Below, in pieces: positions 35,937 through 57,093 of a stretch of DNA of 64,000 bases. Below the pieces are notes generated by a model. That model ran no database searches and had not been told where the DNA came from. It was given only the letters and a program-made list of their open reading frames with translations. How positions within the stretch are numbered: position 1 is the first letter of the stretch; each line of letters starts with the position of its first letter. The DNA lies in the NCBI GenBank assembly GCA_031459915.1, contig JAVKHO010000014.1, positions 1-64,000 of the forward strand, read 5' to 3'. The position numbers and the translations under genes are program-made. This stretch comes from Candidatus Tepidifontimicrobium thermophilum. Its GTDB lineage: Bacteria > Sysuimicrobiota > Sysuimicrobiia > Sysuimicrobiales > Sysuimicrobiaceae.

Positions 35937-36512
35937 CTACTCCTTCTTGCGCTTGGCCCGCTCCACGTAGGTGCTGGTGGCCACCTCCACCCGCACCCAC
36001 TCCCCGGGCGCGATGAAGGGGGGCACGAGGATCACCAGGCCGTTCTCCAGCCGCGCCTCCTTCCACACGTTCTCGTTCCCCACGGAGCGCGTGGGCGGCG
36101 CGGTCTCCACCACCTGCAGCTCCACCACGTCCGGAAAGACCACGCCCACCGCTTGACCCTCCGAGAACTCTACGGGAACCGTGCTCCCCTCCGTGAGGTA
36201 GGCGGCGGCCGGGCCCAGCCGCTCGTTGTCAATGGACACCTGCTCGAAGGTCTCGCTGTCCATGAAGTGGGTGGCCTCCGCGTCGCGGTACAGCACCTGC
36301 ATGGGGCGCCGCTCCAGCTGGACGTCCTCCACGGTCTCGTCGGCGCGGAAGCGCACCTCGCGGACCGCGCCGGTGTGCAGGTTGCGGAGCTTCGCGTGGG
36401 TCACCCCACCCATCTGCCCGCCTCCTGCGTGGTAGGACGCCGTCACCACCTTGTACAGCTCCCCTCCGACCCGGATGGCCATCCCGCTGCGGAGTTCGGA
36501 CGCCACCACCAT
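35937..36512 (-). CDS. efp: Elongation factor P-like protein with non-canonical loop
   Basis: KOW-OB-OB layout: SELRSG, KLRNL.TG, HFMDSETFEQ, KEARLENG, VPPFI..GE, YVER; TATACT -10 at 36545-36550. Confidence 0.85.
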   Translation of the reverse strand: MVVASELRSGMAIRVGGELYKVVTASYHAGGGQMGGVTHAKLRNLHTGAVREVRFRADETVEDVQLERRPMQVLYRDAEATHFMDSETFEQVSIDNERLGPAAAYLTEGSTVPVEFSEGQAVGVVFPDVVELQVVETAPPTRSVGNENVWKEARLENGLVILVPPFIAPGEWVRVEVATSTYVERAKRKKE

Positions 36513-49786: not shown

Positions 49787-50197
49787 TTATCCGTCCGGAT
49801 GTACAGGCTGCCGGACGGAGCCTTGCCGCCCGGCTGCCAGTTCCCGAAGGGGGCAGTACGCGTCGAGCCAGCTCGTGACCTGTTCCCGCGCCCAGTGCGC
49901 CCACGGGCGGTCGCCGTACTCGGCCCGCCGGGCGGCGGAAAAAACCCTCAGGTCATCTCCTCCACCCCGGGCGGCAAAGGAAAGCAGGAGCCCGCACGGG
50001 TAGTGCACGCACAGGCCGCAGTGCTCCACCCGCCGGCGCTTAGCGCACAGCCGGATGGGACACGCCGCCTGGCCCAGGATTTCTTCCTGGGACGCGCACG
50101 AGAACGGGAGTGCCTCATACCAGGCACTGCCCTCCCAGTAGGCCCCGCAGACCCCCGCGTACCGCTCGGCCTGCCTCCCTCTCCAGTCACCTGCCAT
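49787..50197 (-). CDS. Cys-rich protein, DUF3795-like
   Basis: CPIRLC..HCGLC..YPC pattern; GAGG RBS. Confidence 0.6.
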   Translation of the reverse strand: MAGDWRGRQAERYAGVCGAYWEGSAWYEALPFSCASQEEILGQAACPIRLCAKRRRVEHCGLCVHYPCGLLLSFAARGGGDDLRVFSAARRAEYGDRPWAHWAREQVTSWLDAYCPLRELAAGRQGSVRQPVHPDG

Positions 50198-50274
50198 GGC
50201 TCACCGCCTCCTGCTACCAGTTAGCGGAGCGGCGACTGACCCGGCCATCGGCTCGACGCCCGATTCCGGACCGG

Positions 50275-50283
50275 TGGTATTCT
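50275..50283 (+). promoter_or_regulatory. Extended -10 promoter of the copper operon (near-leaderless)
   Basis: TGgTATTCT 10 nt before the ATG at 50294. Confidence 0.5.
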
Positions 50284-50293
50284 GGGGACCGGA

Positions 50294-50668
50294 ATGGTCG
50301 GCGTCCGGCTCGCTGCGGTGCTGTGGGCCGTGCTCCTGCTGGGCCCCCTGGTCGATCCCCACGCCCACGACCTGTACCACACGCACTGGGTGCTTTCCGA
50401 GGCCATCCCGAGCCCGGGATGGGACGTACCGGCCGGCCAGTCCCCGCCAAGGCCCGACCGGTCTCCCCATGCTCCTGGCGTGGTCTGGCTCCGCGGCGCG
50501 GACCCGTCTGTGCCGGCGGTGGTGCACCTGGGGGCCCTGGTGCCGGGGGCTGCGGTGCCGGTGCTGCTCGTCCCGCCCATGCTGGGGCCCCAGCTAGACG
50601 CAGGCCCCTGCGGCTCGTGGACTTCCGCGGACCTAGACCCCCAGGATCCCCCTCCCCGCCGCGCCTGA
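50294..50668 (+). CDS. Exported His-rich protein ending in PQDPPPR; candidate CutF-like regulatory uORF
   Basis: Hydrophobic N-terminus, HAHDLYHTH, polyproline C-terminus; first ORF of the copper operon. Confidence 0.65.
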   Translation: MVGVRLAAVLWAVLLLGPLVDPHAHDLYHTHWVLSEAIPSPGWDVPAGQSPPRPDRSPHAPGVVWLRGADPSVPAVVHLGALVPGAAVPVLLVPPMLGPQLDAGPCGSWTSADLDPQDPPPRRA

Positions 50669-50732
50669 CCACGCATCAGGGTTCGTGACCGAAGGGGTCC
50701 CCGACGCCCCCGTCGGGCACAGGAGGTATGCC

Positions 50733-51335
50733 ATGATCTGGAGGGCAACTGCGGTCTTGGCGGTCCTGAGCGCGTCAGCGGTGGCCACGGTGGCCTGCTC
50801 CCGCACGGAGGCTCTCCGGGGCCAGCAGCTGGATCCCCCTCGCCCGGTCCCGGACCTAGTGGCCCGGGACCAGCGGGGCCAGGTGTTCCGGTTGGCCGAC
50901 CAGCGGGGCAAGGTGGTGGTCCTGTTCTTCGGCTACACCACGTGTCCGGACGTGTGCCCGGCCACCCTGGCGCGGTGGAAGCGGGTCCGGCAGCAGCTGG
51001 GCGACGATGCGGCCCGGGTGCGGTTCGTGTTCGTCACCGTGGATCCCGAACGGGACACCGCCCAGAAGGTGAGGGAGTACCTGGAGCTGTTCAGCCAGGA
51101 CTTCATCGGGCTAGTGGGCTCGGAGTCGGAACTGCGGCCCTTCTACCAGGCCTTCGGCGCCGCGTTTGAGAAGGTACCGCAGCCGGGTAGCGCCGCCGGC
51201 TACCTGGTGGCGCACACCGCCGCGGTCCCCGTGGTAGACACCCAGGGGCGCTGGCGGCTTCGGTTCACCCAGGAGACCTCCGTGGACGACTACGTCCACG
51301 ACCTCCGGGTGCTGCTCCGGGAGAGGAAATCTTGA
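50733..51335 (+). CDS. SCO1/SenC-family copper chaperone lipoprotein
   Basis: Lipobox VAC, FFGYTTCPDVC, VDPERD, conserved His; AGGAGG RBS. Confidence 0.93.
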   Translation: MIWRATAVLAVLSASAVATVACSRTEALRGQQLDPPRPVPDLVARDQRGQVFRLADQRGKVVVLFFGYTTCPDVCPATLARWKRVRQQLGDDAARVRFVFVTVDPERDTAQKVREYLELFSQDFIGLVGSESELRPFYQAFGAAFEKVPQPGSAAGYLVAHTAAVPVVDTQGRWRLRFTQETSVDDYVHDLRVLLRERKS

Positions 51336-51355: not shown

Positions 51356-51799
51356 ATGAGGACGGCAGCAATTCTCGCAGCCCTGCTACTGGCTGTGGGC
51401 CTTGCCCAGGCAGGGCAGGCGCCGGTGGAGGTGAAAAACCCGTGGGCCCGTCCCGGGAACCGCGGGGGCAATAGCGCGGTGTACATGGAGATCCACAACG
51501 CGCAGGCGTACGCTGACCGCCTGGTGGCCGCGGGCACCGACGTGGCGGAGGCGGTGGAGCTACACGAGACCCGCGTGGAGGGCGGGATGCACCGCATGAA
51601 CAAGGTGGAGGCCATCGACGTACCGCCCAACGGCAGGGTAGAGCTGCGGCCCGGTGGCCTCCACGTCATGCTGATCAAGTTGAACACCGCCCTGCGGGTG
51701 GGCGACCGGTTCCCCCTGATCCTGCGGTTCGAGCGGGCCGGTCGTCTCACCGTAGAAGTGGTGGTGCGCGAGCAGGCGGCAGGAGGGGAACACCGGTGA
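51356..51799 (+). CDS. PCuAC copper chaperone
   Basis: WAR, H-x10-M-x21-HVM motif (ELHET..MHRM..PGGLHVML). Confidence 0.93.
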   Translation: MRTAAILAALLLAVGLAQAGQAPVEVKNPWARPGNRGGNSAVYMEIHNAQAYADRLVAAGTDVAEAVELHETRVEGGMHRMNKVEAIDVPPNGRVELRPGGLHVMLIKLNTALRVGDRFPLILRFERAGRLTVEVVVREQAAGGEHR

Positions 51800-52584
51800 A
51801 AGCCCGCCGAGCTCCGCTGGGCTGGCCGCTGGCGGCTCTGGCGGGTGCAGGCTTCCTCCTGAGCGGGTACCTTTGGTTCGGCACCGGCGGGGCAGAGCTG
51901 CGGCTCTGCCCCGCCGGCAGCGGCTGCCAGGTCGTACAGTCCAGCCGGTACGCGTTCCTCCTGGGAGTCCCGCTTCCCGTGTACGGGCTCGTGTACTACG
52001 GAGTTCTGCTGGTGGTGTCGGGATGGGGTACGGACCCCGCACGGCGCTGGCAGCTGGCGCTGCCGGTAGCGGCCGCCGGTTCGGGGGCGTCCCTGGTGTT
52101 CCTGGGCGTGCAGCGCTTCGTCCTGCAGACCTTCTGCACCCTCTGCGTCCTGTCTGCCGTGCTGTCGTTCGCTCTGCTCGCCCTGAGCTGGACGTACACC
52201 CGCCCCAAGGTAGGGTGGCCCGTGATGGTGCTGCCGGCGCTGGCCGCCCTCGTGGCGGTTGTGGGCGGCTACACCCTGACAGAACGCCAGACGGCGGCCA
52301 CCGCCTACGCGGAGGGGCTGGCCAAGCACCTCGCGGCGTCAGGCGCCAGGTTCTACGGAGCCTACTGGTGTCCACACTGTACGGAGCAGAAGCGGATGTT
52401 CGGCGACGCAGCACGGTACCTCCCGTACGTGGAGTGCGACGCCCGCGCTCCGGACGGAAGGCCCGAGGAGTGCAGGAAGGCCGGGGTCCGGGCCTACCCC
52501 ACGTGGGTGATCGGAGGACGGAAGTACGAGGGGACGATCCCCCTGGAGGAACTGGCCAGGCTGTCCGGCTACCCGCCGCCATGA
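51796..52584 (+). CDS. VKOR-thioredoxin fusion (disulfide bond formation)
   Basis: C-x5-C..V..SRY, FCTLC; Trx domain YWCPHC, YVEC, YPTW. Confidence 0.9.
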   Translation: MKARRAPLGWPLAALAGAGFLLSGYLWFGTGGAELRLCPAGSGCQVVQSSRYAFLLGVPLPVYGLVYYGVLLVVSGWGTDPARRWQLALPVAAAGSGASLVFLGVQRFVLQTFCTLCVLSAVLSFALLALSWTYTRPKVGWPVMVLPALAALVAVVGGYTLTERQTAATAYAEGLAKHLAASGARFYGAYWCPHCTEQKRMFGDAARYLPYVECDARAPDGRPEECRKAGVRAYPTWVIGGRKYEGTIPLEELARLSGYPPP

Positions 52585-53588
52585 GACGCTTGCTGCTCGC
52601 CTGGCTGGTCTTCGCGGCCCTCGCCGTGGCCACACCCGCTGAGGCCCAGGTGCGGTGCCTGTCGTCGTTTCCTGCGCCGGGGACGCGGCTGGAGGCACCT
52701 CCCGGCAGCGTCATCTTGTGGATGAACGAGCCGGTGGACCTCCAGCTGAGTCAGTTCCGGGTCCTGGACCCCCGCGGCCGGCGGTTCGACCTGCCCGCCC
52801 GGATCTCCGCGGACGGTCTGCGGGTGGAGGTTCCGCTGTACCCCCTTCCCGACGGCGTGTACGTGGTGCACTACCGGGCGGCGTCGGTCCTGAACGGGCA
52901 CGTGAGCGTGGGGCTGTACAGCTTCGGGGTCCGCACGGCCGTCGAGGTGGAGGAGAGATCCTTTGCCGGGGTGGCGGCGCTGCGCGCGGTGGGCGCCGCG
53001 GCCACCCTGGCCGCACTCGCGTCGGGCTCAGTCCTCGGCGCAGTTCTGGCCACGCTGACCGCGTTTCTGGAGTGGGCGCAGGCCTCGCTCTTCACGGTCC
53101 CGGCTCCCTGGCCGATCCTGCTGCACGGTGGGTGGGTCGGTCTGCTGCTGGCCGGGACCCAGCCGGGGTGGGCCCTGCTCCTGGCCACCGCCACTACAGC
53201 CGCGTGGGCGGTACCCGTCCGGCCTCCCCGGACGCTGCTACGTCTGGTGGCCGCGGCCTGGATCCTGCTGGTCACGCCCGTAGTGGCCGCCGCAGGCGGG
53301 CCCCTGAGCTTGCTGGCCAGCAGCCACGGCCCCGCCCTGGTCCTCATGGTGGCGGCCTACGGGACCGCGGGCGTGCTCGCTGCTCTCGCGCTGCCCGTCC
53401 TGGGCGTGCGGGTACAGGAGCCTTCCTGGACGCGGCTGCTGCTGGCCCTGCTGCTCGCCGCGGCGTGGGCGCTGCGACCTGCGAGGGACGTGGGTGAGTT
53501 CTTCGCGCTGTGGACGGCTCTGGGCGCCCTGTGCGCTGGGGCGTACCTGCTGGGCCAGGGTCGCCTGCGGTGGGGGATTCGGCGGTGA
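52581..53588 (+). CDS. Degenerate CopC domain fused to a multi-TM region
   Basis: Signal peptide, S.PAPG..L..PP, G.Y.V.Y...S..NGH...Y.F.V; hydrophobic C-terminal half. Confidence 0.7.
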   Translation: MRRLLLAWLVFAALAVATPAEAQVRCLSSFPAPGTRLEAPPGSVILWMNEPVDLQLSQFRVLDPRGRRFDLPARISADGLRVEVPLYPLPDGVYVVHYRAASVLNGHVSVGLYSFGVRTAVEVEERSFAGVAALRAVGAAATLAALASGSVLGAVLATLTAFLEWAQASLFTVPAPWPILLHGGWVGLLLAGTQPGWALLLATATTAAWAVPVRPPRTLLRLVAAAWILLVTPVVAAAGGPLSLLASSHGPALVLMVAAYGTAGVLAALALPVLGVRVQEPSWTRLLLALLLAAAWALRPARDVGEFFALWTALGALCAGAYLLGQGRLRWGIRR

Positions 53589-54058
53589 CGCGGCCGACCT
53601 GGGACCTGGTCGTGCTGGGGGCTGTGGTGGCCCTGCTGGGCTTCGGCACCGTGGCCTGGGGGCTGCGTTCGCGCCGCGGCTCCTCGGTGTGGGTGGGGGT
53701 TTTCGTCCTGGCGACCGCGGGCCTGTTCTTCCACCAGGCGGTGCGGATCTCGAGGCTCCCACCCCGCAACCCCATTCCCGCCACCGAACAGTCGGTGCAG
53801 CTCGGCCACCAACTGTACCGCGCTCACTGCGCCGTTTGCCACGGATCCGAAGGACGTGGGGACGGGCCTGCGGCCGCGAGCCTAGTGCCCAGGCCCGCGG
53901 ACCTACGGCGCACCGCGCGCATGGCAGACCCGTTGCTGTTCACCCGCATCACCGAAGGCCTGCCGGGAACCGCCATGCCTGCGTTCCGAGACGTCCTGAC
54001 CGAGGAGGAACGCTGGCACGTGGTGAACTTCCTCCGAGCTCTGGCGGACCGGCCGTGA
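53585..54058 (+). CDS. Membrane-anchored monoheme cytochrome c
   Basis: Two TM segments, CAVCH, GDGP, GTAMPAF, ERWHVV. Confidence 0.88.
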   Translation: MTRPTWDLVVLGAVVALLGFGTVAWGLRSRRGSSVWVGVFVLATAGLFFHQAVRISRLPPRNPIPATEQSVQLGHQLYRAHCAVCHGSEGRGDGPAAASLVPRPADLRRTARMADPLLFTRITEGLPGTAMPAFRDVLTEEERWHVVNFLRALADRP

Positions 54059-54585
54059 GGGAAGCCCTACTTCCACCGTTCCTGCACGGTGCGCTGACCG
54101 GAGGTGGGCCCGGGTTTCTGGGCTGGACCCTCCTCATAGCCGGTCTGCTGCTGGCCTTCTACGGCGTGAAGGCAAGCCTGCGGACCGCGGAGGGGCGGGC
54201 TTTCTTCCTGGCGGGTCTTGCCGCTGCAGCCGTGAGCGGGGCCGGGCTGCTGCGACCAGCCCCGCCTCCTGCGGTCGTACCCTCCCGCAACCCGGTCCCC
54301 CTCACCGCGGAGTCCGTGGAGGCCGGGCGGCGGGTGTACGAGGTGCACTGCGCCGCGTGCCACGGCCAACAGGGGGCTGGCGACGGTCCCGCAGCCGCAG
54401 GCTTAGCCAGGGGGCCGGCGGACCTGCGCCTGCACGTTCCCATGCACTCGGACGGGCAGCTGTACCTGTGGATCACAGTGGGCGTCCCGGGAAACGCCAT
54501 GCCGCCCTTCGGGGATCGTTTGAGCGACGAGGACCGCTGGCATGTAGTTAACTACCTGAGGGTCCTGGCCCTGAGCGCCCGTTGA
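54055..54585 (+). CDS. Membrane-anchored monoheme cytochrome c
   Basis: Two TM segments, CAACH, GDGP, GNAMPPF, DRWHVV. Confidence 0.88.
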   Translation: MREALLPPFLHGALTGGGPGFLGWTLLIAGLLLAFYGVKASLRTAEGRAFFLAGLAAAAVSGAGLLRPAPPPAVVPSRNPVPLTAESVEAGRRVYEVHCAACHGQQGAGDGPAAAGLARGPADLRLHVPMHSDGQLYLWITVGVPGNAMPPFGDRLSDEDRWHVVNYLRVLALSAR

Positions 54586-54631: not shown

Positions 54632-55003
54632 GTGAGGGCATACAGAACCCTTGTGGCCGTGCTGGCCTGCGCTGGCCTTGTGGGAGTTGCGGCCGCGCAC
54701 GCGAAGCTGGTACGCGCGGAGCCGGCTCCCGGAGCGGTGCTGCGCACTGCCCCCCGCGTGGTGCGCGCGGTTTTCAACGAGGAGCTCGCAGCACGCGGCA
54801 GCTTCCTCGTGGTCGTGGACGCGCGGGGCCGGCGGGTAGACGACGGCAAGAGCGGGCTGGACCTGGACGACCTGGACCGCAGGACCCTCCTGGCCAGGCT
54901 GCGGCCATTGGGGCCCGGCCGGTACACGGTCCGCTGGCAGGCCACCTCCGCGGACGACGGCTACGTGGCGCGGGGTAGCTACGTCTTCACCGTGCGGCCG
55001 TGA
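54632..55003 (+). CDS. copC: CopC-family protein
   Basis: Signal peptide then His1 (HAKL..AEP), FNE, GRYTVRW..S.DDGY. Confidence 0.85.
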   Translation: MRAYRTLVAVLACAGLVGVAAAHAKLVRAEPAPGAVLRTAPRVVRAVFNEELAARGSFLVVVDARGRRVDDGKSGLDLDDLDRRTLLARLRPLGPGRYTVRWQATSADDGYVARGSYVFTVRP

Positions 55004-57093
55004 AGCGGGTACGAAGACTCCTCCTCGCCTGCCTGCTGGTGGCCACGACCGCGGGTCCGGCCCTGGCCCACGCGGTGCTGCAGACCTCCACGCCGGCCCA
55101 CGGTGCCAGCCTGGATACCCCACCCGCGGAGGTGGTGCTGACCTTCACGGAGCCCGTGCACCCGCAGGCCAGCTCCGCACAGGTGGTAGACGCCGCGGGC
55201 CGTGTGGTCTCGGAGGGCTTCGAGGTGGTCCCAGACGGACGGACCGTGCGGGTGAAGGTGGGGCGCCTGGATCGCGGCACGTACACCGTGCGGTGGAAAG
55301 TCCTCAGCCGCCTGGACGGACACGTGACTGAGGGCCGCGTGAGCTTCGGGGTCGGCGTGGCTCCCGCTCCAGCCCCCCTGGCCTCGCAGGGTCCGCCGTG
55401 GTGGCAGGTGTTCCTGCGCTGGCTGGGCTACCTGGCAGCCCTTTCGCTAGCGGGTGCTCTCGCTTTCCAGCACTTGGTCCTGAGCGGAGCAGCTCCGGAC
55501 CGGGCGGCCGAGGTCCGTCGTGTGGTGCGGGTGTCCGCGTCAGCCCTGGCCGCCGCCGCGTTGGCGGACACCCTCGCCCGCAGCGTGTGGCTGCAGTCGC
55601 CCGGACAGGGAACGTGGGCGACCCTGTGGACGCTGGTCCGGACCTCTCAAGAGGGTCCTTCCCTGCTCCTCCGCGTGGGCGCTGCGGTCCTGGCCCTAGA
55701 CGCAGCACGCACCGGTTCACCATGGACGGCCGGGCTTGCGGGTGGGGCGGCGCTGCTGGGGATCACCGTCACGTCCCACGCGTGGGCCGTCGGGCCGCTG
55801 GCGGCGGCAGTAGACTGGCTGCACCTAGCCGCGGCCTCCGTGTGGGTCGGAGGGCTAGCCTGTGTGGCGGTGCTGCTTTCAGCCGCGCGGCCCCGGGACA
55901 GCACGGTACCGATTCTGCGGGCCTTCTCCCGGTGGGCGGGGTACAGCCTGGCGGTGGTGGCGGCCACCGGCGCTTACGCCGTGGTGCTGCACGTCCCCAG
56001 CTGGGACGCCCTGGCCGCGACCGGCTACGGGCGGTGGCTGGTGGCAAAGATCCTCCTGGTAGCGGTCCTGGTGGGGTTGGGTGCTTTGAACCGCTACCGG
56101 CTCCTCCCCCGGCTTGAGGTGGCTCGGGGGACCCTCCGCCGTCTGCGGCTGTCCGTGCGGGCGGAGGTCGCTGTGGCCTCGCTCGTCCTGCTGGCTGCGG
56201 GGGCCATCGCCGTGACCCCGCCCGCGCGCACCGTGCAGGCCGCGGGGAAGCAGCCCCTGGTTCTGGCCGCCCTCGCGGACTCCACCCGTGTCCTGTTGAC
56301 CGTGGACCCCGGGGAGCCCGGGTGGAACCGCTTTTTGCTGGCCGTGCGGGACGCGCGGGGGAACCCTGTGCCCGTGGACCGCGTGGTGCTGCGTCTTCGG
56401 AAGCTGGACGAGGAGGGCAGCGTGCCCGCGGTGGTTCTGGAACCCAGACCGGACGGAAGCTACATTGCGGAAGGGACGCAGCTGGGTCTCGCGGGTTTCT
56501 GGGAGCTGGAGGTGGTGCTGCGGGTCCGGGGCCGGCCGGACCGGACGGTGTGGTTCCCGTTGCGGTCGGGGTCGTTCCAGCTGCGGTCGGACCTCGAGGC
56601 GTTCCGCTTCCTGCGGCGCGCCCAGGAAGCTCTGGAACGGCTCCGGACCTGGCGCGAGACGGAGCAGATCACCGACGGCGCGGGAAACGTGGTGGTCACC
56701 CGCTACACCTACCAGCGCCCGGACCGGCTGGCGTTCGAGGTGGTGGGCGGGATGCGGGGCGTGCTGATCGGGAAGGATCGGTTCGTCCGCACGGATCGAG
56801 GCTGGCAACGGGACACACTTCCGGAGGCGTTCACCGCCCGCGGCCCGGCCCTGTACATGCAGAACCCGCTGCGGGCGGCCCTGGGAAGACAGGAGCCGTG
56901 CCCGGACGACCCCACGGAGCCCTGTCAGGCGGTGCTGTGGGACTCGCCCGACGGGCTGGCCTCCTTCGGCGCGTGGGTGGGCACGCGGACCCACCGGGTC
57001 CACCGGCTGCTCATGTGGGCGCCCGCCCACGCCATGACCAGCGTCCTGGAGGACTTCGACGCCCCCGCAAGGGTGGAGGCCCCGGGCCCCTAG
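55000..57093 (+). CDS. CopC-CopD fusion with extended extracytoplasmic C-terminal domains
   Basis: His1 HAVL, DGH; CopD SHA..DWLHL...WVGG, TG, YG..L..K; ~280 aa C-terminal extension. Confidence 0.88.
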   Translation: MKRVRRLLLACLLVATTAGPALAHAVLQTSTPAHGASLDTPPAEVVLTFTEPVHPQASSAQVVDAAGRVVSEGFEVVPDGRTVRVKVGRLDRGTYTVRWKVLSRLDGHVTEGRVSFGVGVAPAPAPLASQGPPWWQVFLRWLGYLAALSLAGALAFQHLVLSGAAPDRAAEVRRVVRVSASALAAAALADTLARSVWLQSPGQGTWATLWTLVRTSQEGPSLLLRVGAAVLALDAARTGSPWTAGLAGGAALLGITVTSHAWAVGPLAAAVDWLHLAAASVWVGGLACVAVLLSAARPRDSTVPILRAFSRWAGYSLAVVAATGAYAVVLHVPSWDALAATGYGRWLVAKILLVAVLVGLGALNRYRLLPRLEVARGTLRRLRLSVRAEVAVASLVLLAAGAIAVTPPARTVQAAGKQPLVLAALADSTRVLLTVDPGEPGWNRFLLAVRDARGNPVPVDRVVLRLRKLDEEGSVPAVVLEPRPDGSYIAEGTQLGLAGFWELEVVLRVRGRPDRTVWFPLRSGSFQLRSDLEAFRFLRRAQEALERLRTWRETEQITDGAGNVVVTRYTYQRPDRLAFEVVGGMRGVLIGKDRFVRTDRGWQRDTLPEAFTARGPALYMQNPLRAALGRQEPCPDDPTEPCQAVLWDSPDGLASFGAWVGTRTHRVHRLLMWAPAHAMTSVLEDFDAPARVEAPGP

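Follow-up and report, generated by a model that had tools for sequence, protein, structure and literature searches.

A proline-ending, histidine-bearing leader family ahead of copper genes in Sysuimicrobiota: a candidate cysteine-independent counterpart of CutF and CruR

The locus

The window analysed here, a stretch of 64,000 nucleotides from the genome of Candidatus Tepidifontimicrobium thermophilum (Sysuimicrobiota), holds a small open reading frame directly ahead of a run of genes that begins with sco. The features of this locus are as follows, the strand being given in brackets.

50275-50283 (+): extended -10 element TGGTATTCT, 10 nt upstream of the leader ATG, so placed that a near-leaderless transcript is predicted
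50294-50668 (+): leader ORF (P0001), 124 aa, conserved, outside the Pfam and NCBIfam families
50294-50353 (+): N-terminal hydrophobic segment, putative signal peptide or anchor
50360-50386 (+): His cluster H23-H31, core D26-(P/L)27-x-H29-x-H31, predicted metal site
50480-50491 (+): conserved hydrophobic segment V63-L66, a predicted beta-strand at a fixed distance from PPP
50513-50572 (+): second hydrophobic segment, of moderate strength, at roughly -45 to -27 relative to PPP
50645-50668 (+): D-P-P-P-R-R-A-stop, predicted pause site, the Pro codons holding CCTCC at 50651-50655
50669-50732 (+): 64-nt spacer, with a local hairpin at 50700-50717 and the sco Shine-Dalgarno (SD) sequence AGGAGG at 50721-50726
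50733-51335 (+): sco (SCO1/SenC), first gene after the leader (PF02630, E 5e-40)
51356-51799 (+): PCu(A)C copper chaperone (PF04314, E 2.5e-34)
51796-52584 (+): VKOR-thioredoxin fusion (PF07884, E 4e-20)
52584-53588 (+): CopC-domain membrane protein (PF04234, E 7e-13)
53510-54585 (+): two membrane-anchored c-type cytochromes (PF13442, PF00034)
54632-55003 (+): CopC (PF04234, E 8e-18)
55000-57093 (+): CopC-CopD fusion with the layout of a YcnJ-like importer (PF04234 and PF05425, both strong)

In the CopC-CopD fusion the FixH-like stretch is weak (PF05751, E 0.034) and NF033808 scores under its cut-off. The VKOR fusion itself has a PP or PPP end (52570-52587, +, in this window) at 8 of 9 family loci; at all nine its stop codon runs into the start codon of the following gene, and the PP end may be no more than a consequence of this overlap. 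Elsewhere the genome encodes Rho, a separate CsoR gene with, directly behind it, an ORF that starts with a CxxC metal-binding motif, four matches over cut-off to the heme-copper-oxidase subunit I family, and two EF-P-family genes, one of them on contig C24 and the other at 35943-36512 (-), 14 kb upstream of the leader, which scores above the cut-off for PRK00529, below it for TIGR00038 and far below it for EfpL.

An earlier note on this DNA had described an ORF of 124 aa beginning 10 nt after an extended -10 element, with a signal or transmembrane N-terminus and the C-terminus LDPQDPPPRRA; the coordinates are right, the promoter motif lies at 50275-50283, the N-terminus is hydrophobic and the C-terminus reads as given. 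Two other points of that description stand only in part. The run HAHDLYHTH is present, but what is conserved among relatives is the core D-P-x-H-x-H, with H29 and H31, and not the whole run; and the label “Cys-free” passes over Cys106, the one cysteine of a protein that has no CxxC and whose histidines are at positions 23, 25, 29, 31, 59 and 78.

Membership of the leader family and its conserved residues

An orthologous ORF upstream of sco in related genomes was found at 9 of 9 same-family loci and at 2 of 21 other loci, in a comparison of 30 loci taken from 61 genomes. A profile search of the phylum (94 genomes, all of one order) matched the leader family in 26 and then in 29 genomes, and among 1.84 billion representative proteins the leader profile gave 55 matches, of which four were dropped, P0029 and P0038 as long hits of repeat type, P0041 and P0054 because they were mis-started or partial; L054-L056 and L059 were discarded as spurious. 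A corresponding search of Chloroflexota, of low sensitivity in that the best nine candidates were scored per genome, matched at least 3 of 401 genomes, and one of the three matches (G275, unpublished) was left out of further use. Judged by such matches, the family is found in both of the groups checked, namely the phylum Sysuimicrobiota and Chloroflexota.

Mean column identity across the 52 aligned leader proteins is 25%, and only H29, H31 and the PPP triplet are invariant (52/52). The arginine after PPP (Arg122) and Pro27 are each present in 51 of the 52, the present genome being itself the exception in the second case (Leu27). By alignment column, H23 occurs in 26/52 and H25 in 3/52; D or E stands just before PPP in 37/52, the stretch beyond PPP is two to four residues long in 45/52, and a CxxC or CxxxC motif is seen in one leader alone. 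Non-conservation of the PPPR end and of the His cluster had been named beforehand as what would tell against a leader, and these counts, with HxH and PPP in every member and the arginine in all except one, run the other way. The best 13-residue hydropathy value ahead of H29 exceeds 1.6 in 51/52 leaders.

No Pfam or NCBIfam family fits P0001 or its relatives, and the DUF2946 profile (PF11162) failed to match P0001 and reached one of the 52 leaders at E 0.32. The AlphaFold model of the leader has a mean pLDDT of 58.5, with a helix at residues 2-20 at high pLDDT, low-confidence strands at residues 31-35 and 63-67, and low confidence generally beyond the first helix and tail; an outer fold of the leader is accordingly no more than hypothetical, its strands being modelled at low pLDDT. 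A structure search of the Atlas, made on a poor model, reached a best TM of 0.29 and was uninformative. In language-model features the nearest named clusters are CzcI (PF28244) and DUF6769 (PF20558), with scores of 0.93-0.94; homology to these was not adopted, 104-108 of 256 features being shared with no alignment, and it is kept as a lead only, at the same level as a further neighbouring cluster that is 12% DUF2946. A literature search, with subscription papers and bioRxiv supplements outside its scope, found no description of the family or of His-only leaders before sco or copC, and the family could be listed in the protein list of the CutF paper.

Three unusual copies may be recorded here. 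One, before sco, carries an in-frame TAG (L086, G013:C30:17791-18162, -), and another lacks the PPP end and any clear downstream gene (L060, G031:C46); both are possibly decayed leaders. A third, divergent copy before sco (L006, G005:C131) has lost D-P-Y but retains HxH and PPPR, and carries two additional cysteines.

Promoter, selection and transcription

The pattern [T/C]GnTAnnnT lies 9-11 nt upstream of the ATG at 10 of 10 same-family loci, compared with 45 of 32,743 ATGs genome-wide, so that the placement of the extended -10 element exceeds chance. A sigma-70 scan found no full promoter, and a terminator scan found nothing. A CsoR-like palindrome is absent at the leader promoter and has 47 matches elsewhere in the genome, so that the search was uninformative.

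The leader ORF is a real conserved gene under purifying selection: dN/dS is 0.30-0.66 in all eight pairs compared (0.11-0.26 for sco), and substitutions fall mostly at third codon positions. The selection is nevertheless weak.

Transcription was seen in a stranded hot-spring metatranscriptome (X6), of which about 5% was sampled. Its + strand reads, 16 in total, start in the bin 50273-50313, with none in 50232-50272; their depth is 4-6 across the first two-thirds of the leader ORF and 0-1.4 across sco, and the depth over the leader, from these few reads, is the highest of the operon. Since there are only 16 reads and the drop in depth starts inside the ORF, these data show transcription and not attenuation. 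RNA contigs X1-X3 were left out, neither strand nor level being readable from them, and X4 and X5 comprise six and two reads respectively. A divergent, Cys-rich DUF3795 gene at 49787-50197 (-) of the window is more highly transcribed in X6 than the leader is.

Predicted occlusion of the SD by the proline codons

The 64-nt gap to the sco ATG at 50733, with CCTGA at 50664 and TCAGG at 50676, is as first described. Of the two hairpins proposed within it, that at 50700-50717 is confirmed by folding (-11.1 kcal/mol), but 50685-50720, folded alone, gives two small hairpins; the intergenic hairpins vary in sequence among relatives. Similarly, the positions of CCTCC (50651-50655) and of the SD with which it was said to pair (50721-50726) are right, but the pairing is window-dependent, having a probability of 0.00-0.82 at 37 °C, and in one wider folding window the SD pairs with another stretch of the ORF 3' end. 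At the same temperature the SD of this locus is unpaired with a probability of 0.01-0.24 when the RNA is free and 0.47-0.95 when the ORF 3' end is masked. Three results at this locus count against the reading preferred below: the pairing depends on the window, the occlusion weakens at 55-65 °C, and the duplex z is only -1.2.

Across the family, CCTCC lies in the PPP codons at 25 of 34 loci, as against 87 of 261 PPP runs in the genes of this genome, which alone supplies the background; taking one locus per genus, the count is 13/16 (p 2e-4). The middle proline codon is CCT at 21/34 loci (background 52/261). These codon counts exclude L060 and L086, which have no in-frame terminal PPP. At the other 9/34 loci CCTCC is missing from the PPP codons, which again counts against the preferred reading, and at some loci the arm that faces the SD is not in PPP but coincides with the stop codon or follows closely after it.

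For folding, a set of 29 loci was used, which excludes L042, L076, L077 and L085 (uncertain start) and L079 (contig end). CCTCC occurs near the 3' end at 23 of these 29 loci and in 3 of 158 control genes, and the mean probability that the SD is unpaired is 0.12 at the leader loci compared with 0.38 for 158 control gene pairs; with a ribosome footprint masked at PPP the values become 0.40 and 0.42, a gain of more than 0.2 being seen at only 19/29 leader loci and at 30/158 controls. Duplexes between the cognate arm and SD outperform permuted pairs (p 0.0016, or 0.0005 in a 19-locus subset), the same test giving p 0.037 and 0.27 for two control regions; no more than 4/29 loci have their cognate duplex in the best tenth, which, like the p of 0.037 for a control region, is a further point against. 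By folding, the SD is predicted to stay inaccessible until PPP is covered by a ribosome. The combination typical of an arrest leader, a hidden SD together with overlap with the footprint of the stalled ribosome, is therefore present in prediction, window-dependently at this locus.

Geometry of the C-terminal module

What is held constant in the leaders is not the position of the metal motif. The spacing from V64 to P119 is 55.2 +/- 0.6 residues (range 54-57, n=52), that from H31 to V64 is 44 +/- 7 (29-58, n=52), and the His motif floats, with H31 lying 84-113 residues from P119 across the family. An alignment-free check placed the best 4-mer 55-58 residues from PPP in 42/52. It must be remembered that the loci are related and that the HMM may have selected for leaders of constant length and so added to the apparent constancy. 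In a PPP-anchored profile, the best 19-residue hydropathy window, corresponding to the second hydrophobic segment, starts -48 to -40 from PPP in 33/52.

In published force-profile work, some 50 residues separate the peptidyl transferase centre from the outer exit of SecYEG (PMC7513700), and a hydrophobic helix is reported to give its first force or pull at about 45 residues (PMC7886326). By these distances, which the leader geometry matches, a ribosome pausing at PPP would have both the His motif and the strand beyond the exit, with the second segment on its way into the translocon.

Genes downstream of the leader

At 36 distinct loci the next gene is sco in 14 cases, CopC in three, CopD in two and a cytochrome c in one; at a further 14 it encodes an unannotated secreted Ig-like protein with an N-terminal His, and two are uncallable. 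No sec gene follows the leader at any of the 36, the downstream genes belong to copper families at every locus with an identification, and HupE/UreJ is absent from the next genes identified at 34/36 loci.

Several individual arrangements deserve mention. In L042 (G003:C286) the leader stands directly before the cytochrome c pair and CopC, with sco, PCuAC and VKOR missing between, which may be read as the leader having stayed while the first genes changed. In L076 a CopD gene comes after the leader, with a very short, remnant-like ORF between the two, as if the first gene had been internally deleted, and in L087 (G026:C45:78000-91000) two leader-headed copper operons lie back to back, with a third copy on the same contig.

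The Ig-like protein has an invariant His directly after its signal peptide and an invariant Glu-Pro (examples are L088:4588-5043 (-), L050, L078, L043, L065 and L089, among others), and its gene is followed by CopC or CopD at 11 of 11 loci tested. The model has a pLDDT of 89.7 and its best match is H. pylori CrdA (E 2e-5, Z 11.2, rmsd 2.5, 102 residues aligned), which is taken as a lead and not as a sign of function, because the list of matching folds is also full of generic Ig-like domains. In a PDB sequence search the best hit for this protein was a filamin repeat (E 0.008), which was set aside. The family occurs in 34 of 151 Chloroflexota genomes (a tally that includes the unpublished G132), adjoining CopC/CopD, and is a candidate new copper-binding protein family.

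This gene offers a test that is independent of the leader profile. Thirty Chloroflexota loci were picked by the Ig-like downstream gene, and dropping the unpublished L118 (G132) left 29. A PP-ending ORF lies upstream at 21 of these and none at the other eight; sorted by eye, the 21 comprise 13 of His type, one of CxxxC type (L111, CxxxC/DPPP) and seven membrane ORFs ending in R(A/G)PP or RPPP (L102, L103, L114, L116, L117, L119 and L120). Only two of the 13 His-type ORFs are clear members of the leader family. Since His-, CxxxC- and membrane-type ORFs are all found there, several kinds of leader fill the slot before the Ig-like copper gene, and some of them resemble known arrest peptides. The 13 His leaders replicate the folding result weakly, which counts against the reading preferred below, the unpaired probability of the SD rising from 0.23 to 0.37 with a gain of more than 0.2 in 4/13; their hydrophobic segment is more hydrophobic and starts -37 to -59 from PPP.

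Comparison with known leaders

CutF, from the cutFOG locus of Rhodobacter capsulatus, has the tail PEPEGPPPRL, in which PPP is required (bioRxiv 2025.02.05.636593). Like it, the present leader is a small, putatively exported uORF with PPPR a few residues before the stop, a short spacer whose structure is predicted to hide the SD, and copper genes downstream (PMC9973294). It differs in having no CxxxC and a His motif 84-113 residues from PPP, in carrying its anti-SD inside the proline codons, and in preceding Sco, PCuAC, CopC and CopD rather than a multicopper oxidase. “CutF-like proteins” were defined by rules in Ozturk 2023, which calls Chloroflexota members scarce (PMC9973294). By those rules the leader is shorter than 150 aa (124 aa), has PP within its last 15 residues (P119-P121 of 124) and has a same-strand neighbour within 1000 nt (sco, at 64 nt); the signal-peptide filter is itself SignalP-based, and the hydrophobic N-terminus of 51/52 leaders is a hydropathy result.

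CruR (Bp2923, DUF2946/PF11162) of Bordetella pertussis is likewise a uORF before copper-acquisition genes, with conserved spacing and a proposed release by folding force, and its homologues precede Sco, PCuAC, YcnI and CopC (PMC9426467). Its CXXC and RAPP are 45 residues apart, and it is described there as needing neither signal peptide nor EF-P, with Rho termination over a 162-bp gap (PMC9426467). CruR fixes the position of the metal motif, whereas in the present family the fixed spacing (55) belongs to the hydrophobic strand and the metal motif floats. No similarity to DUF2946 was detected in the leader, and membership fails on the profile, on CXXC/CxxxC (there is the single Cys106), on RAPP ((D/E)PPPR instead) and on a metal motif fixed at about 45 residues.

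His-only leaders are not new in principle: CutF-like SSN clusters 14 and 17, located upstream of HupE/UreJ (Ni/Co), have been published (PMC9973294). These share with the present leader a His-only motif, an export signal (putative in the present leader) and a terminal PP, and differ from it in their downstream genes, the present leader preceding copper genes. The RAPP/RGPP arrest peptides, too, are small exported or membrane uORFs; they end in PP and are over-represented ahead of PCu(A)C and YcnI genes (PMC12992588); as the motif here is (D/E)PPPR and not R(A/G)PP, EF-P-resistant arrest is not expected of the leader (PMC12992588).

Interpretation and alternatives

The earlier note's suggestion of a ribosome-stalling copper leader gains support from the copper operons that the family heads and from the enrichment of the anti-SD over controls; copper sensing and stalling themselves we infer. 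The leader is likely to be a cysteine-independent switch of the CutF/CruR kind, in which stalling, copper binding and polarity are all predictions. More specifically, our tentative choice, which falls somewhat short of being probable, is a stall-gated leader that keeps a copper-supply operon ON when copper is scarce. The N-terminal segment would thread the chain into SecY, and the ribosome would slow at (D/E)PPPR, where its footprint would cover CCTCC and free the SD, so that sco and the genes coupled to it are translated; that dwelling there would free the SD is a consequence of the predicted structure and agrees with cutFO. During the pause the His motif would be 88 residues out and the V63-L66 strand 53-56 residues, both just past the membrane, and the second hydrophobic segment would begin to enter the translocon. 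Binding of Cu(II) would then fold or engage the outer part, pull on the chain and end the pause, whereupon the hairpin would re-form and sco translation would be shut off, perhaps with Rho polarity following.

The direction of the copper effect is the least certain step of this scheme. Release by copper is favoured because the cargo is of supply type, the genome has oxidase-family matches and a separate CsoR locus, and disulfides of the CutF type are absent; YcnJ, a CopC-CopD-YtkA protein, is reported to support growth and oxidases under copper starvation (PMC13344008). Apart from the points raised above, four things count against the scheme: PPP stalls are normally relieved by EF-P, of which this genome has two family genes; the tail is not RAPP/RGPP; the published His-only CutF-like clusters go with Ni/Co genes; and the otherwise near-invariant Pro27 is missing in this copy. 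Moreover, CutF, the only PPPR leader known to have been characterised, has a copper-induced stall, the opposite polarity.

The alternative that survives best, although we regard it as rather unlikely, adopts that CutF polarity: copper at the His site would prolong the PPP pause and turn the operon ON, to load cuproproteins or to buffer copper. In its favour, the tail is like that of CutF (PEPEGPPPRL) and unlike CruR's RAPP; most loci have a short gap, of 36-110 nt, and, like cutFO, a hairpin that would hide the SD; PPP would by default be cleared by EF-P (bioRxiv 2025.02.05.636593); and the Ig-like neighbour is similar to CrdA, a resistance determinant. However, the first and second genes are of delivery or import types (Sco, PCuAC, CopC, CopD), among scanned families that included no oxidase or efflux family, and the CutF model needs disulfides, for which 51 of the 52 leaders lack CxxC/CxxxC.

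A metal-blind leader, in which the PPP pause and the hairpin would couple sco to translation of the leader or to Sec/YidC capacity, we judge to be unlikely. Coupling to Sec/YidC capacity suggests itself because every downstream product is exported or membrane-located; the fixed spacing is that of hydrophobic segments and not of the His motif, as for a secretion or insertion monitor, and His-less membrane leaders of RAPP type occupy the same slot in Chloroflexota. Such a leader would, however, hardly account for an HxH kept in 52/52 proteins at about 25% mean column identity, or for a family that stands before copper genes and before sec genes at 0/36 loci.

That the histidines of a stalling leader sense Ni, Co or Zn is improbable. 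The published His-only clusters 14 and 17 precede HupE/UreJ (PMC9973294), and upstream of one leader (L010, G047:C22) an adjoining divergent ORF has, by eye, the look of a Fur-family regulator, but the downstream genes of the present family are copper families wherever identified. Least probable of all is an ordinary small exported copper-binding protein as first gene of the operon, its tail having no regulatory role, for although it has its own promoter, an export signal and the highest RNA depth of the operon (from few reads), this would leave unexplained the synonymous CCT bias in PPP (middle codon 21/34 against 52/261), CCTCC near the 3' end (23/29 against 3/158) and the 2-4-residue tail after PPP in 45/52, and selection on the protein is weak and its model poorly folded.

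Implications

CutF and CruR, although opposite in polarity, both rely on cysteines, and they raise the question of how a metal outside the membrane alters a ribosome stall inside. A family without the paired cysteines takes disulfide chemistry out of that question, and the tight 55-residue spacing provides a geometry that can be tested. A bolder form of the reading preferred here, which we consider doubtful, is of a trans-membrane force sensor with a 55-residue ruler, the strand sitting at the outer mouth of SecY, the marginal membrane segment at its inner mouth and the ribosome on PPP. Extracellular Cu(II), captured at a Cys-free His site, would complete a small outer fold, pull the stall open and so turn a copper-import operon off without a transcription factor, and His-, Cys- and membrane RAPP-type leaders would be interchangeable plug-ins of a switch that arose repeatedly. 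The concept of such a switch is already published, and the gain lies in a new family and a testable geometry rather than in a new principle; if the reading is true, it would explain how the Sco/PCuAC/CopCD arm of copper supply is regulated in these uncultured bacteria.
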